Shown one piece after another: positions 1 through 4,383 of a DNA stretch of 4,444 bases. The notes beneath the pieces are model-generated. The model worked only from the letters and a program-made list of their open reading frames with translations, ran no database searches and had not been told where the DNA came from. A program made the position numbers and the translations under genes. Origin of the DNA: a virus (Duplodnaviria > Heunggongvirae > Uroviricota > Caudoviricetes); the IMG/VR virus record IMGVR_UViG_2693429713_000003; one strand, 5' to 3'. Numbering within the stretch: position 1 is the first letter of the stretch; each line of letters opens with the position of its first letter.

Positions 1-555
1 TTTCACCCGTCAGAATCTGGCGGGGATCCGTCAGTAAAATCAAAACATGATCCGTCAGATAAAAAAACTTCTCGTCCGGACGCTTCGCAACCGGACACGC
101 AGACGGATGAACAGGATTTTTTAACTCGCCATCCTGATGCGGTTGTATTCAGCCCTAAAAAGCGCCAGTGGGGGACGCAGGATGATTTGACCTGCGCACA
201 GTGGCTCTGGAAAAAAATCATCGCCCTGTACGAGCATGCCGCCGAATGTGACGGCGAGGTGGTTCGTCCCAAAGAACCGAACTGGACAGCCTGGGCAAAC
301 GAAATTCGCTTGATGTGTGTGCAGGATGGTCGTACTCACAAACAAATCTGCGAGATGTACAGCCGCGTCAGCCGCGATCCGTTCTGGTGCCGTAACGTGC
401 TCAGCCCGTCGAAGCTGCGGGAAAAATGGGATGAGCTTTCCCTGCGCTTATCGCCGTCCGTCAGCACGTACACCGAAAAACGCGAAGACCCGTACTTCAA
501 ATCCAGTTACGACAACGTGGACTACAGCCAGATCCCGGCAGGATTCAGGGGGTGA
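1..555 (+). CDS. Phage replication-associated protein, 3' portion with DnaT-like (primosomal protein I-like) C-terminal domain; 5' end is outside the window
   Basis: Frame 1 is open from nt 1 to the TGA at 553-555, so the ATG at 187 is probably internal. The C-terminal tail ...DYSQIPAGFRG matches my recollection of the E. coli DnaT C-terminus (...SQIPPGFRG), and an upstream W-x3-A-x2-IRL block also resembles DnaT. Residues encoded by nt 1-180 are a low-complexity charged linker (S/D/K/P/T-rich). Confidence 0.62.
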   Translation, partial: FHPSESGGDPSVKSKHDPSDKKTSRPDASQPDTQTDEQDFLTRHPDAVVFSPKKRQWGTQDDLTCAQWLWKKIIALYEHAAECDGEVVRPKEPNWTAWANEIRLMCVQDGRTHKQICEMYSRVSRDPFWCRNVLSPSKLREKWDELSLRLSPSVSTYTEKREDPYFKSSYDNVDYSQIPAGFRG

Positions 556-557
556 TC

Positions 558-1046
558 ATGAGTCTGTTAAATGACGTTCAGAAATTCATTGAAGCCCATC
601 CGGGCTGTACTTCCGGAGACATTACGGATGCTTTTGCAGGTTACTCACGGCAGCGCGTTCTGCAGTCAGCAAGCAAGTTACGTCAGAGTGGGCGTGTGGC
701 TCACCGTTGTGAAGGAGATACACGCAGACATTTCCCGCGCCTGACTGAGAGAGCGCAGGAGCCGGAACCACAACCAGTTCGTGAAACCAGACCTGTGCGC
801 AATTTCTATGTCGGCACTAACGATCCCCGGGTGATTTTGTGCCTGACCCGCCAGGCTGAAGAACTGGAGTCCAGGGGCTTATACCGTCGTGCTGCAACGG
901 TGTGGATGGCGGCATTCCGTGAAAGCCACTCCCAGCCAGAACGAAACAATTTTCTGGCGCGTCGTGAGCGGTGCTTACGGAAAAGCAGCAAGCGCGCTGC
1001 ATCGGGTGAAGAGTGGTATCTGTCAGGGAATTACGTGGAGGCTTAA
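558..1046 (+). CDS. PerC-like transcriptional regulator with an N-terminal extension
   Basis: ATG at 558 is preceded by AGGGGGTGA (546-554); the ORF track's GTG at 552 is less likely. The C-terminal half contains AEELESRGLYRRAATVWMAA, matching the PerC-family signature (AEELE-x-G-x-YRRAA-x2-W) as I recall it. The stop TAA 1044-1046 overlaps the next ATG (TAATG). Confidence 0.5.
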   Translation: MSLLNDVQKFIEAHPGCTSGDITDAFAGYSRQRVLQSASKLRQSGRVAHRCEGDTRRHFPRLTERAQEPEPQPVRETRPVRNFYVGTNDPRVILCLTRQAEELESRGLYRRAATVWMAAFRESHSQPERNNFLARRERCLRKSSKRAASGEEWYLSGNYVEA

Positions 1047-1699
1047 TGAGTAATAAATATTGCCAGGCGCTGGCGGAACTGCGGAACAAACCAGCCCATG
1101 AACTGAAGGAAGTGGGCGATCAGTGGCGCACGCCGGATAACATTTTCTGGGGAATTAACACCCTGTTTGGCCCGTTTGTTCTGGATCTGTTCACTGACGG
1201 TGATAACGCCAAATGTGCCGCGTATTACACGGCGGAAGACAACGCGCTGGCGCATGACTGGTCAGAACGTCTTGCGGAGCTTAAAGGTGCTGCCTTTGGT
1301 AATCCCCCATACAGCCGCGCCAGTCAGCATGAGGGGCAATACATCACAGGCATGCGTTACATCATGAAGCATGCCAGTGCCATGCGTGATAAAGGTGGGC
1401 GCTATGTTTTCCTGATCAAAGTTGCCACCAGCGAAGTGTGGTGGCCGGAAGATGCAGATCATATTGCTTTTATTCGCGGGCGTATTGGTTTTGAACTGCC
1501 TGCCTGGTTTATCCCGAAGGATGAGAAGCAGGTGCCGACAGGCGCTTTCTTCGCTGGTGCTATTGCTGTTTTCGACAAGACCTGGAAGGGACCGGCAATC
1601 AGCTACATCGGGCGCGATGAACTTGAGGCATGTGGTGAGGCCTTTCTGGCGCAGGTTCGCCAGCAGGCGGAAAAACTGGTCAGGGAGATGGCGGCATGA
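1046..1699 (+). CDS. Phage-type DNA N6-adenine methyltransferase (Dam-like, orphan)
   Basis: ATG at 1046 with GGAG at 1037-1040; the track's GTG at 1013 lacks a comparable RBS. Contains the catalytic motif IV NPPY (..AAFGNPPYSR..) typical of N6-adenine methyltransferases, and a WRTP...LDLFTD N-terminal block as in phage Dam-family enzymes. No adjacent restriction endonuclease gene. Confidence 0.8.
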   Translation: MSNKYCQALAELRNKPAHELKEVGDQWRTPDNIFWGINTLFGPFVLDLFTDGDNAKCAAYYTAEDNALAHDWSERLAELKGAAFGNPPYSRASQHEGQYITGMRYIMKHASAMRDKGGRYVFLIKVATSEVWWPEDADHIAFIRGRIGFELPAWFIPKDEKQVPTGAFFAGAIAVFDKTWKGPAISYIGRDELEACGEAFLAQVRQQAEKLVREMAA

Positions 1700-2022
1700 C
1701 GACGTTAACTCAATGCCAGCAGCAGGTGCTGGATATGCTGATTTCTTATCAGAAAGAACGTGGCTTCCCGCCAACCAATCAGGAGGTGGCAACCATGCTG
1801 GGATACCGTTCAGTGAATGCAGCGGTGGAGCATCTTCGCGCACTGGAGAAAAAAGGCGTCATCACGATAAAGCGTGGCGTGGCCCGGGGCATCACGCTTC
1901 ATACCGCGGTGAAGGATGACGACAGCGAGGCGGTCGGGATTATCCGCTCACTGCTTGCCGGTGAGGAAAACGCCAGGCTGCGTGCAACCCACTGGTTACA
2001 TGAGAGGGGGCTGAAAGTATGA
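1696..2022 (+). CDS. LexA N-terminal DNA-binding domain protein (winged HTH), lacking the S24 peptidase/autocleavage domain
   Basis: 108 aa. Residues 4-68 (LTQCQQQVLDMLISYQKERGFPPTNQEVATMLGYRSVNAAVEHLRALEKKGVITIKRGVARGITL) align closely with my recollection of E. coli LexA 4-68 ([65 protein letters not shown]). No Ala-Gly cleavage site or Ser/Lys peptidase region follows. ATGA overlap with the methyltransferase stop (1696-1699). Confidence 0.8.
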   Translation: MTTLTQCQQQVLDMLISYQKERGFPPTNQEVATMLGYRSVNAAVEHLRALEKKGVITIKRGVARGITLHTAVKDDDSEAVGIIRSLLAGEENARLRATHWLHERGLKV

Positions 2023-2408
2023 AGCTGATTCTGCCTTTTCCACCCAGCGTGAACACCTACTGGCGACACCCCAACAAAGGGGCATTTGCTGGTAAGAGCC
2101 TGATAAGTGCGGCGGGGCGAAAATTCCAGAGCGCGGCGTGCGCAGCAATAGTTGAGCAGTTACGTCGTCTGCCGAAACCAACGTCGGCACCTGCTTCAGT
2201 GGAGATTGTGTTGTTTCCTCCGGATAACCGGATCCGCGATCTGGACAACTATAACAAGGCACTGTTTGACGCCCTGACCCACGCGGGTGTGTGGGAAGAC
2301 GACAGCCAGGTGAAAAGAATGCTGGTGGAGTGGGGACCGGTTATCCCGGAAGGGAAGGTCGAGATCACTATCAGTAAGTACGAGAAACCGGCGGGTGCAG
2401 CCGCCTGA
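2019..2408 (+). CDS. rusA: Crossover junction endodeoxyribonuclease RusA (Holliday junction resolvase)
   Basis: 129 aa. LPFPPSVNTYWRH...RIRDLDNYNKALFDALTHAGVWEDDSQV... matches the RusA family pattern (LPWPPSxNxYYRH...RRRDLDNLxKAxxDALTKAGxWxDDxQV). ATGA overlap with the preceding stop (2019-2022). Confidence 0.88.
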   Translation: MKLILPFPPSVNTYWRHPNKGAFAGKSLISAAGRKFQSAACAAIVEQLRRLPKPTSAPASVEIVLFPPDNRIRDLDNYNKALFDALTHAGVWEDDSQVKRMLVEWGPVIPEGKVEITISKYEKPAGAAA

Positions 2409-2427: not shown

Positions 2428-3237
2428 ATGAATAATCTGATGGTCATTGATGGTATTGAAGTTCGTCGTGATGCTTATGGGCGTTACAGCCTGAACGATC
2501 TGCATCGCGCAGCAGTAGCATCTGGTGCAAATGCCAGAACCAAGGAGCCAGGAAAGTTTCTTTCCAGCCAACAAACTGTTGAACTCGTTCATGAATTGAC
2601 CAACACCCAGAATTTGGGTGTTGACCCGGTGAGTGTGATTCATGGGGGAAATGAACGGGGAACTTATGTCTGCAAGGAACTGGTGTATGCCTATGCAATG
2701 TGGATCAGCCCGTCATTCCATCTGAAGGTGATCCGTACTTTCGACATGGTAACCAGCGCACCGGAAAAATTATCCGGACAGGCTGCTGACAAGATGCAGG
2801 CTGGTGTGATTCTGCTGGACTTTATGCGTCGGGAGTTAAACCTGTCTAACTCATCTGTGCTTGGTGCCTGTCAGAAACTCCAGGAGGCTGTTGGCTTACC
2901 GAATCTGGCACCGCGCTATGCCATTGATGCTCCTGCTGATGCACTCGATGGCTCAAGCCGCCCTACGCTATCATTGAGTGCACTGCTGAAGCAGTATGGT
3001 ATCCGCCTTACGGCTAATCAGGCATATCACCAGATGGTGAAGCTGGGGATCGTCGAACAGCGCGAACGATACAGCCGTACCGCGATTAACAACATCAAAA
3101 AATTCTGGTCGCTGACAGCGAAAGGCTGCATGTTCGGCAAGAACATCACCAGTCCCGCAAATCCGCGCGAGACGCAGCCGCACTTTTTCGAATCCCGATT
3201 CCCTGAGCTGTTAAAGCTGCTCGATACCGTTCATTGA
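2428..3237 (+). CDS. KilA-N domain protein (Roi/antirepressor-like), possibly with a KilAC-like C-terminal region
   Basis: Strong RBS AAGAGGAG (2410-2417) before the ATG at 2428. The N-terminus MVIDGIEVRRDAYGRYSLNDLHRAA...VCKELVYAYAMWISPSFHLKVIRTFD fits the KilA-N consensus. The C-terminal ~130 aa are less certain; a KilAC/Ant-like resemblance is weak. Confidence 0.72.
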   Translation: MNNLMVIDGIEVRRDAYGRYSLNDLHRAAVASGANARTKEPGKFLSSQQTVELVHELTNTQNLGVDPVSVIHGGNERGTYVCKELVYAYAMWISPSFHLKVIRTFDMVTSAPEKLSGQAADKMQAGVILLDFMRRELNLSNSSVLGACQKLQEAVGLPNLAPRYAIDAPADALDGSSRPTLSLSALLKQYGIRLTANQAYHQMVKLGIVEQRERYSRTAINNIKKFWSLTAKGCMFGKNITSPANPRETQPHFFESRFPELLKLLDTVH

Positions 3238-3238
3238 G

Positions 3239-4234
3239 GTGACCGTGAGAGCACTACTGACCCCTGAAATTGCCCCGCGTATGGGGATCGTATTGTTCAG
3301 ACCAGGTTCAGAGCTGATGCCCCTGTTTATGCAGGGGCGTGTCCTGCTGGAGCCTGAGCCGGAGCATTATTCATCTTTCGCCAGTGGTGCCGTTCCCGCG
3401 GCATCACAACCGCTGGCGGATGATCCTGTCGTTCGGGCCGTGTTCCGTAATGAGGCAGTGATTCGTCGTGCTGGTGGGGTGGAATGTCTTGAAAGCTGGT
3501 TACTTCGTGAAAAAGGCTGCCAGTGGCCTCATTCCGACTGGCACAGCGAGAACATGACCACAATGCGACACGCGCCGGGCGCAATCCGTCTGTGCTGGCA
3601 CTGTGATAACCAGCTGCGCGATCAGTTCACGGAACGGCTGGAATCAATGGCAACGGATAACTGTGCCCGGTGGGTGTTATCTGTCGTGCGTCGGGATCTC
3701 GGTTTTAATGATAGTCACGTTGTGACAATGCCGGAACTGTGCTGGTGGCTGGTTCGTAATGACCTGGCGGATGCCTTACCGGAAAGTGCAGCCCGTAAGG
3801 CACTGAGATTACCGAAGCCTGTTGTGCCATCTGTCACCCGGGAAAGTGACCTTGTGCCTTCGGTTCCTGCCACCAGCATCATCCAGGATAAAGCGAAAAA
3901 GGTGCTGGCGCTGAAAGTGGATCCGGAGTCGCCGGAGTCTTTTATGTTACGCCCAAAACGTCGCCGCTGGGTTAATGAAAAGTACACGCGCTGGGTTAAG
4001 ACGCAGCCGTGCGCATGTTGTGGAAAGCCTGCTGATGATGCCCACCACCTGATAGGTCACGGTCAGGGTGGAATGGGTACAAAAGCGCATGACCTTTTTG
4101 TGTTGCCTTTGTGCAGAAAGCATCACGACGAGCTGCATGCGGATACCGTGGTATTTGAAGAGAAGTATGGCTCCCAGTTGGAGCTGATATTTCGTTTTAT
4201 TGATCGTGCGCTGGCAATTGGCGTGCTGGCGTAA
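3239..4234 (+). CDS. DUF968-like protein with C-terminal Cys/His (HNH-like zinc-binding) motif; putative nuclease
   Basis: 331-aa ORF. The C-terminus CACCGKPADDAHHLIGHGQGGMGTKAHDLFVLPLCRKHHDELH resembles the DUF968 signature found in lambdoid prophage Nin regions. A second CxxC (LCWHCDN) lies mid-protein. The start is uncertain: GTG 3239, GTG 3245 (after GAGGTGA) or ATG 3281. Confidence 0.6.
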   Translation: MTVRALLTPEIAPRMGIVLFRPGSELMPLFMQGRVLLEPEPEHYSSFASGAVPAASQPLADDPVVRAVFRNEAVIRRAGGVECLESWLLREKGCQWPHSDWHSENMTTMRHAPGAIRLCWHCDNQLRDQFTERLESMATDNCARWVLSVVRRDLGFNDSHVVTMPELCWWLVRNDLADALPESAARKALRLPKPVVPSVTRESDLVPSVPATSIIQDKAKKVLALKVDPESPESFMLRPKRRRWVNEKYTRWVKTQPCACCGKPADDAHHLIGHGQGGMGTKAHDLFVLPLCRKHHDELHADTVVFEEKYGSQLELIFRFIDRALAIGVLA

Positions 4235-4248
4235 GTGGAGAACTCTAA

Positions 4249-4383
4249 ATGATTAATCCTTCTGAAATTGGCAAAACGGGTGAAATGGTTCGTCTTCGTA
4301 CTCTGGAAAGTATCTGGGTTCAGGGGAAGCTCCGCATGTGGGGGCGTTGGTCTTATATCAGTGGAGGGACTAGCGGTAACTAG
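4249..4383 (+). pseudogene. N-terminal fragment of a putative Q-type late antiterminator, truncated after 44 codons by the IS2 insertion
   Basis: ATG at 4249 with GTGGAG 9 nt upstream. Encodes MINPSEIGKTGEMVRLRTLESIWVQGKLRMWGRWSYISGGTSGN; the L-x2-WG-x-W block resembles the N-terminus of 82/933W-type Q proteins as I recall them (..MVLERWGAWAA..). Its position after rusA/KilA-N/DUF968 is where Q normally sits. The terminating TAG (4381-4383) is the first triplet of the IS2 end. Confidence 0.4.

Follow-up and report, generated by a model that had tools for sequence, protein, structure and literature searches.

Several phages encode small DNA adenine methyltransferases of the family PF05869/TIGR01712, which lack a separate target-recognition domain. 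Three of these served for comparison, VT2-Sa orf32 (175 aa), T1 gp20 (237 aa) and HP1 orf13 (173 aa); they are 32–36 % identical to one another, and all are orphan genes in early or nin-like phage regions. HP1 Dam is reportedly specific for GATC, a result said to go back to Piekarowicz and Bujnicki in 1999. M.EcoVT2Dam likewise methylates GATC, according to the part of PMC6602927 that cites Radlinska and Bujnicki (2001), as does M.EcoT1Dam (PMC4996451). Also in this family is the 35 %-identical M.Btr190III, which methylates GATC with marked off-target activity (PMC4996451). Other prophage-borne enzymes include the orphans M.EcoGI and M.EcoGII, which are non-specific (PMC6602927, PMC4659465), and the Stx-phage type M.EcoPA8orf6770P/M.EcoGV, a 'DNA adenine methyltransferase' that has a DPPW motif and a METTL3/14-like fold and carries a GATC-specific annotation (PMC10810198). 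M.EcoPA8orf6770P is functionally linked to the product of a neighbouring gene, and in complex with PNB-2 its preferred substrate is 16S rRNA (PMC10810198).

The gene investigated here shares its family with the VT2, T1 and HP1 enzymes, and like theirs it is an orphan in an early phage region. The window, which is the whole stretch of 4,444 nucleotides of phage DNA that was analysed, is tightly packed, and its eight substantial ORFs are all on the + strand.

3..555, + strand: 3′ part of a replication O-like (helix-turn-helix) gene, the stop of which overlaps the PerC-like start
552..1046 (alternative start 558), + strand: PerC-family (YfdN-like) gene, so named by PGAP (Pfam PerC, E 7.6e-9)
1037..1048, + strand: ribosome-binding GGAGG (1037–1041) and ATG (1046–1048), within the 3′ end of the upstream gene
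1046..1699, + strand: gene very likely encoding an orphan phage N6-adenine DNA methyltransferase, 217 aa (PF05869/TIGR01712)
1175..1240, + strand: putative S-adenosylmethionine-binding region, strand beta1 (VLDLFT, with D47), beta2 and then E64
1301..1312, + strand: catalytic motif IV, N86-P-P-Y89, right after predicted strand beta4 (residues 82–85)
1316..1354, + strand: clade-specific insertion 1, approximately residues 91–103, after NPPYS (from alignments and model)
1493..1546, + strand: clade-specific segment 2, residues 150–167, a loop between the last two core strands
1696..2022, + strand: gene for a LexA DNA-binding-domain-only protein, 108 aa (Pfam LexA_DNA_bind, E 2.9e-19, residues 1–65)
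2019..2408, + strand: RusA Holliday-junction resolvase gene, overlapping the LexA-domain gene in the same operon
2428–3237, + strand: KilA-N protein gene
3245–4234, + strand: DUF968/HNH protein gene
from 4249, + strand: start of a DUF1133 (Q-like) gene, 44 codons

The methyltransferase ORF is intact, from ATG 1046 to TGA 1697–1699. An in-frame GTG at 1013 is a possible alternative start; PGAP picks the ATG in the 99.8 %-identical locus of E. coli Ecol_545. The protein matches the Pfam 'Dam' profile PF05869 over positions 3–167 of 169 (E 1.8e-45; 155 bits, cutoff 28.1) and the TIGR01712 equivalog 'phage N-6-adenine-methyltransferase' over positions 1–165 of 165 (253 bits, cutoff 97), and both matches are far beyond chance. 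The PADLOC MTase_II model PDLC03263, which has exactly 217 positions, is matched over its full length with 519 bits. A Pfam search of the protein found no second domain, and the enzyme is small and single-domain with no separate target-recognition domain. The initial annotation had read this gene as an N6-adenine methyltransferase with an NPPY motif, and the intact ORF, the two family matches and the NPPY at residues 86–89 bear this out. It is therefore very likely that the product is a small enzyme of one domain, an S-adenosylmethionine-dependent DNA N6-adenine methyltransferase belonging to the T1/HP1/VT2 'small Dam' family, without a restriction partner.

The D12-class enzymes (PF02086), which include E. 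coli Dam, T4 Dam and DpnM, form a different family. Identity of the window protein to these three is 8–12 % over about 110 aligned residues, the target-recognition domain inserted in the D12 class is absent, and the Pfam search of the protein gave no PF02086 (MethyltransfD12) match. M.EcoMIV, as a PF02086 enzyme, is ruled out as the same gene. Likewise, M.EcoGV and M.EcoPA8orf6770P are ruled out as MT-A70/DPPW enzymes: the window protein has NPPY instead, the Pfam search gave no MT-A70 profile match, and METTL3/14 and METTL4 chains matched its model with Foldseek E values of at least 0.059 and probabilities of at most 0.20. For M.EcoGI and M.EcoGII, described as non-specific, no link to the window gene was found.

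In an alignment of 35 diverse relatives, D25, W27, T29, D47, N54, the PPYS of residues 87–90 and R146 are invariant, and N86 is nearly so. D47 is invariant in three family alignments, including this one, and E64 is invariant in one and nearly invariant in another of 32 sequences. The core common to the T1, HP1, VT2-Sa and window enzymes consists of D25, W27, T29-P30, L46-D47, N54, W72, N86-PPYS, S129, W132, R146 and F149 (D-x-W-x-TP, LD, N, W, NPPYS, S-x-x-W and R-x-x-F).

An AlphaFold model based on the 35-sequence alignment reached a pLDDT of 94.7 and a pTM of 0.90, with the lowest confidence in the 10-residue block 161–170 (mean pLDDT 79). An earlier run with a shallow alignment of 17 sequences (pLDDT 58.5) was discarded, and the 32-sequence alignment, which includes T1-like proteins and is misaligned in its C-terminal half, was left out of the modelling. 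The model has beta1 at residues 44–50, beta2 at 59–62, a helix at 72–79 and beta4 at 82–85, with NPPY directly after, followed by a short hairpin within insertion 1, then a helix at 103–115, three further core strands and a helix at 190–216. This predicted layout follows the canonical class I (Rossmann) methyltransferase order, as one alpha/beta domain with a C-terminal helix. D47, in strand beta1, and E64, after beta2, stand where the class I fold has its cofactor-binding acidic residues, and from this canonical layout they are putatively motif I-like and motif II-like, respectively.

No PDB chain matched the protein by sequence, the sole hit being a chance match to xylose isomerase (E 0.57). 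The top structural match of the model is an RNA cap methyltransferase, which counts against a DNA methyltransferase, as does the rRNA preference of M.EcoPA8orf6770P with PNB-2; by analogy, the window enzyme could be an RNA methyltransferase, possibly with a partner encoded next to it. This is highly improbable. PCIF1 is matched only weakly (TM about 0.5, 12 % identity), with DNA methyltransferases scoring nearly as well, the motif is NPPY rather than DPPW with no MT-A70 match, and family members cloned alone act on DNA (PMC6602927, PMC4996451). The PerC and LexA-like genes, as candidate partners, are missing around more distant homologues. In addition, relatives with 67–74 % identity are fused to an N-terminal C5-cytosine DNA methylase domain, and one with 57 % identity to a C-terminal PAPS-reductase-like domain (proteins P0213, P0214, P0219 and P0230). 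These fusions point to DNA modification.

DNA is the probable substrate, and no paper giving the target of this clade was found in the literature searched. GATC appears the likeliest, because distant members of the family have it in common, and the analysis leans towards GATC, possibly with relaxed fidelity. Over aligned positions, the window protein is 30 % identical to the VT2-Sa enzyme, 24 % to that of T1 and 26 % to that of HP1, and it is set apart from all three by two additional segments in loops and by the long helix at its C-terminus. Insertion 1, a short predicted hairpin with a conserved TGM, is absent from the T1, HP1 and VT2-Sa enzymes and is a candidate DNA-contact element. Segment 2 is longer than in HP1 and VT2-Sa and is unlike that of T1. 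Due to this low identity and the two clade-specific insertions, GATC is likely rather than proven, and the loops, as seen in the alignments, may leave real room for another specificity. An adenine methyltransferase with a non-GATC motif, or a nearly promiscuous one, its specificity set by the two insertions, is unlikely but worth considering: the T1, HP1 and VT2-Sa enzymes are no more than 24–30 % identical to the window protein over aligned positions, the insertions (approximately 91–103 and 150–167) are where loops could face DNA, M.Btr190III in the same family has off-target activity, and the prophage orphans M.EcoGI and M.EcoGII are non-specific. However, T1, VT2-Sa and M.Btr190III enzymes all methylate GATC, and among T1, HP1 and VT2-Sa this has been kept despite 32–36 % identity, which suggests that GATC is the ancestral specificity.

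The initial annotation had held that the target cannot be read from the sequence, and base composition gives no clue to it. GATC occurs 23 times in the window (25.9 expected), and the observed/expected ratios for SfII (0.76) and the Ecol_545 prophage (0.73) are like those in T1 (0.78), HP1 (0.63) and VT2-Sa (0.62); composition is therefore uninformative on specificity. As a separate observation, GGCC is the most under-represented 4-base palindrome in the window (7 observed, 21.5 expected), with a ratio of 0.54 for SfII and of 0.51 for the Ecol_545 prophage (L001 13300–44380), a stronger under-representation than that of GATC.

The gene belongs to the rightward early operon of a lambdoid prophage of the e14/SfII/mEp460 type, where it comes after the replication gene. 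Five early genes (O-like, PerC-like, methyltransferase, LexA-domain and RusA) are chained by overlaps of 1–4 bases: GTGA between the O-like and PerC-like genes, TAATG between the PerC-like gene and the methyltransferase (TAA 1044–1046 and the ATG have one base in common), ATGA between the methyltransferase and the LexA-domain gene (TGA overlapping ATG), and ATGA again before RusA. Promoter-like sites in the window are as frequent as in shuffled sequence, which is chance level. Terminator-like sites number 10 against a shuffled mean of 4.0, with none on the + strand near the methyltransferase gene in the scan of the window.

Translational coupling to two flanking regulators, PerC-like upstream and LexA-like downstream, had been proposed. 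The TAATG and ATGA overlaps are real, but they are not a specific link to regulators, as they belong to the five-gene chain. The upstream gene is indeed PerC-like, by its Pfam match, and falls in phrog_1324, labelled transcriptional activator. Downstream, the LexA likeness holds for the DNA-binding domain but goes no further: the protein is of 108 aa without a peptidase domain, and TIGR00498 aligns it to LexA positions 1–91 of 203 only, with a score below the cutoff. It consists of an N-terminal winged-helix domain without the S24 peptidase domain, and self-cleavage is therefore not possible; it might be a non-inducible binder of LexA-type operators. Its PHROGs label is transcriptional repressor.

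The order PerC-like, methyltransferase, LexA-domain (not always present) and RusA is kept in lambdoid phages of E. coli, Shigella and Salmonella. In more distant relatives it is lost: in Klebsiella phage ST405-OXA48phi1.2, a homologue with 67 % identity is flanked by a DUF968 fragment and a DUF1133 gene, and Chi gp52, with 46 % identity, has unrelated neighbours and no PerC gene. In other E. coli assemblies, one extra G in GTGGAGG (window 1030–1048) gives PerC-methyltransferase fusion proteins of 380 or 382 aa (...SGNFVGGLMSNKY...; P0012, P0135 and similar), found on at least 40 contigs. A frameshift at an overlap would be expected to give such a fusion, which is weak evidence for a functional partnership. 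Deletion-derived fusions of the methyltransferase with the LexA-domain protein (P0005) and with RusA (P0027) occur in single-member clusters. The versions from Cronobacter, Atlantibacter and ST64B have an extra C-terminal extension of 70–110 aa without a Pfam match.

The absence of a restriction partner, as first annotated, agrees with the searches. PADLOC and Pfam searches revealed no restriction endonuclease in the window, where the PerC-like, LexA-domain, RusA, KilA-N and DUF968 neighbours match no PADLOC restriction model, and none is listed in the Ecol_545 prophage annotation, which has an HNH endonuclease gene directly upstream of the terminase genes. With no cognate endonuclease nearby, this is an orphan methyltransferase rather than part of a Type II restriction-modification system. 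The one candidate for a nuclease is the DUF968/HNH protein (3245–4234), of which the methyltransferase would be the modification half. It has an HNH-type motif (HNHc_6, E 1e-6), its gene lies in the same operon 1.5 kb downstream of the methyltransferase, and the DUF968 fragment in the Klebsiella phage abuts the methyltransferase. Such a pair is nonetheless extremely unlikely, and DUF968 was rejected as the restriction partner, since it matches no PADLOC defence or restriction model. Three unrelated genes lie between the two, and the methyltransferase is truncated to yfdM in K-12. DUF968 genes such as ydfU also occur in lambdoid prophages without this methyltransferase, which counts against pairing. 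The DUF968 protein, encoded in the nin-like region, has its clear HNH-type motif near its C-terminus (CCGKPADDAHHLIGHG...CRKHHDELH), and the SfII homologue is annotated as an HNH endonuclease.

Comparisons show the window block to be 96.6–98.2 % identical to phages SKA5, SfII, mEp460_4F5 and others, with mEp460 and Stx2c phages matching from base 480 on, and 99.8 % identical to a prophage integrated beside icd in Ecol_545. The order in that prophage is repressor, cro, ymfL, O-like gene, the block, and then lysis and structural genes. The same methyltransferase gene is found in SfII (dam, SfII_43), mEp460, SKA5, 1720a-02 and Stx2c-converting phages, with protein identities of 97–99.5 % for the mEp460, SKA5 and Stx2c phage copies. 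These E. coli and Shigella phages have the same order as the window (PerC-like, methyltransferase, LexA-domain, RusA, KilA-N, DUF968) and are essentially no different from it. In ST64B, sb44 is 70 % identical and lies in the order PerC-like, methyltransferase, RusA with the same overlaps, but it has an extra C-terminal extension of approximately 85 aa where the window has a separate LexA-domain gene. Of 5426 complete E. coli genomes, 2120 contain the gene and 1725 have at least 80 % of it. A search of 1.84 billion cluster representatives gave 1429 matches with E≤1e-3, of which 97 had E≤1e-30.

In K-12, a 5′ remnant of the gene persists as yfdM of CPS-53. It matches gene nucleotides 1–267 at 97.4 % (MG1655, NC_000913.3 2472121–2472387) and ends at about the NPPY motif; yfdN is its PerC-like neighbour, and the window has the full-length methyltransferase instead. 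According to a preprint (bioRxiv 10.1101/413146), SW1, a T1-type phage, needs YfdM for its propagation or is promoted by it, which is hard to reconcile with half an enzyme acting as a methylase.

The K-12 remnant, together with an IS3-family element that truncates the downstream DUF1133 gene at codon 44, might suggest that the window copy, too, is a remnant, non-functional and in decay within a defective prophage. This is very unlikely for the methyltransferase: the ORF is full length, the protein is 99.5 % identical to that of Escherichia phage SKA5 and 97.2 % to that of mEp460, and every invariant family residue is kept. From position 4381 on, the DUF1133 gene gives way to the last 64 bases of the element, presumably an IS2 end, which also supplies the TAG stop (4381–4383). 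Ecol_545, the closest genome, has an intact DUF1133 gene of 192 aa with no IS at that place. Late gene expression is probably defective in the source prophage.

For an intact DNA adenine methyltransferase in this operon, the following course is proposed. While the prophage repressor is bound, the gene would be silent. On induction or infection, the enzyme would be made, translated as one link of the chain of overlapping ORFs, and would methylate adenines in replicating phage DNA, and in host DNA, most probably at GATC or at a GATC-related or relaxed site. In this way, rapidly replicating phage DNA would stay fully modified and be protected against restriction when it enters the next host. What a phage would gain from a GATC enzyme is not obvious, as GATC is already methylated by E. 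coli hosts.

The methyltransferase is an ordinary and very common gene, already known and routinely annotated by PGAP, PADLOC and Pfam. Lambdoid and SfII-like prophages carry it as a standard accessory gene, and it matters little beyond its correct annotation. A more far-reaching interpretation, and a rather improbable one, is that because of its two loop insertions this clade, which roughly one in three complete E. coli genomes carries, has a non-GATC or promiscuous target, and that the PerC-like protein, its natural fusion partner in some alleles, might modulate the enzyme during induction. If true, the prophage would gain an epigenetic handle on host or phage gene expression.

The names given to the gene vary between annotations. 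PGAP uses 'phage N-6-adenine-methyltransferase' and the SfII annotation dam, and several RefSeq phage records (among them SfII_43, L009 32072–32725; Chi gp52, L005 3004–3690) label it 'phosphoadenosine phosphosulfate reductase'. This mislabel appears to stem from phrog_33262, a family of PAPS-reductase-methyltransferase fusions, in which the window protein matches positions 283–492 of 495, the methyltransferase half.
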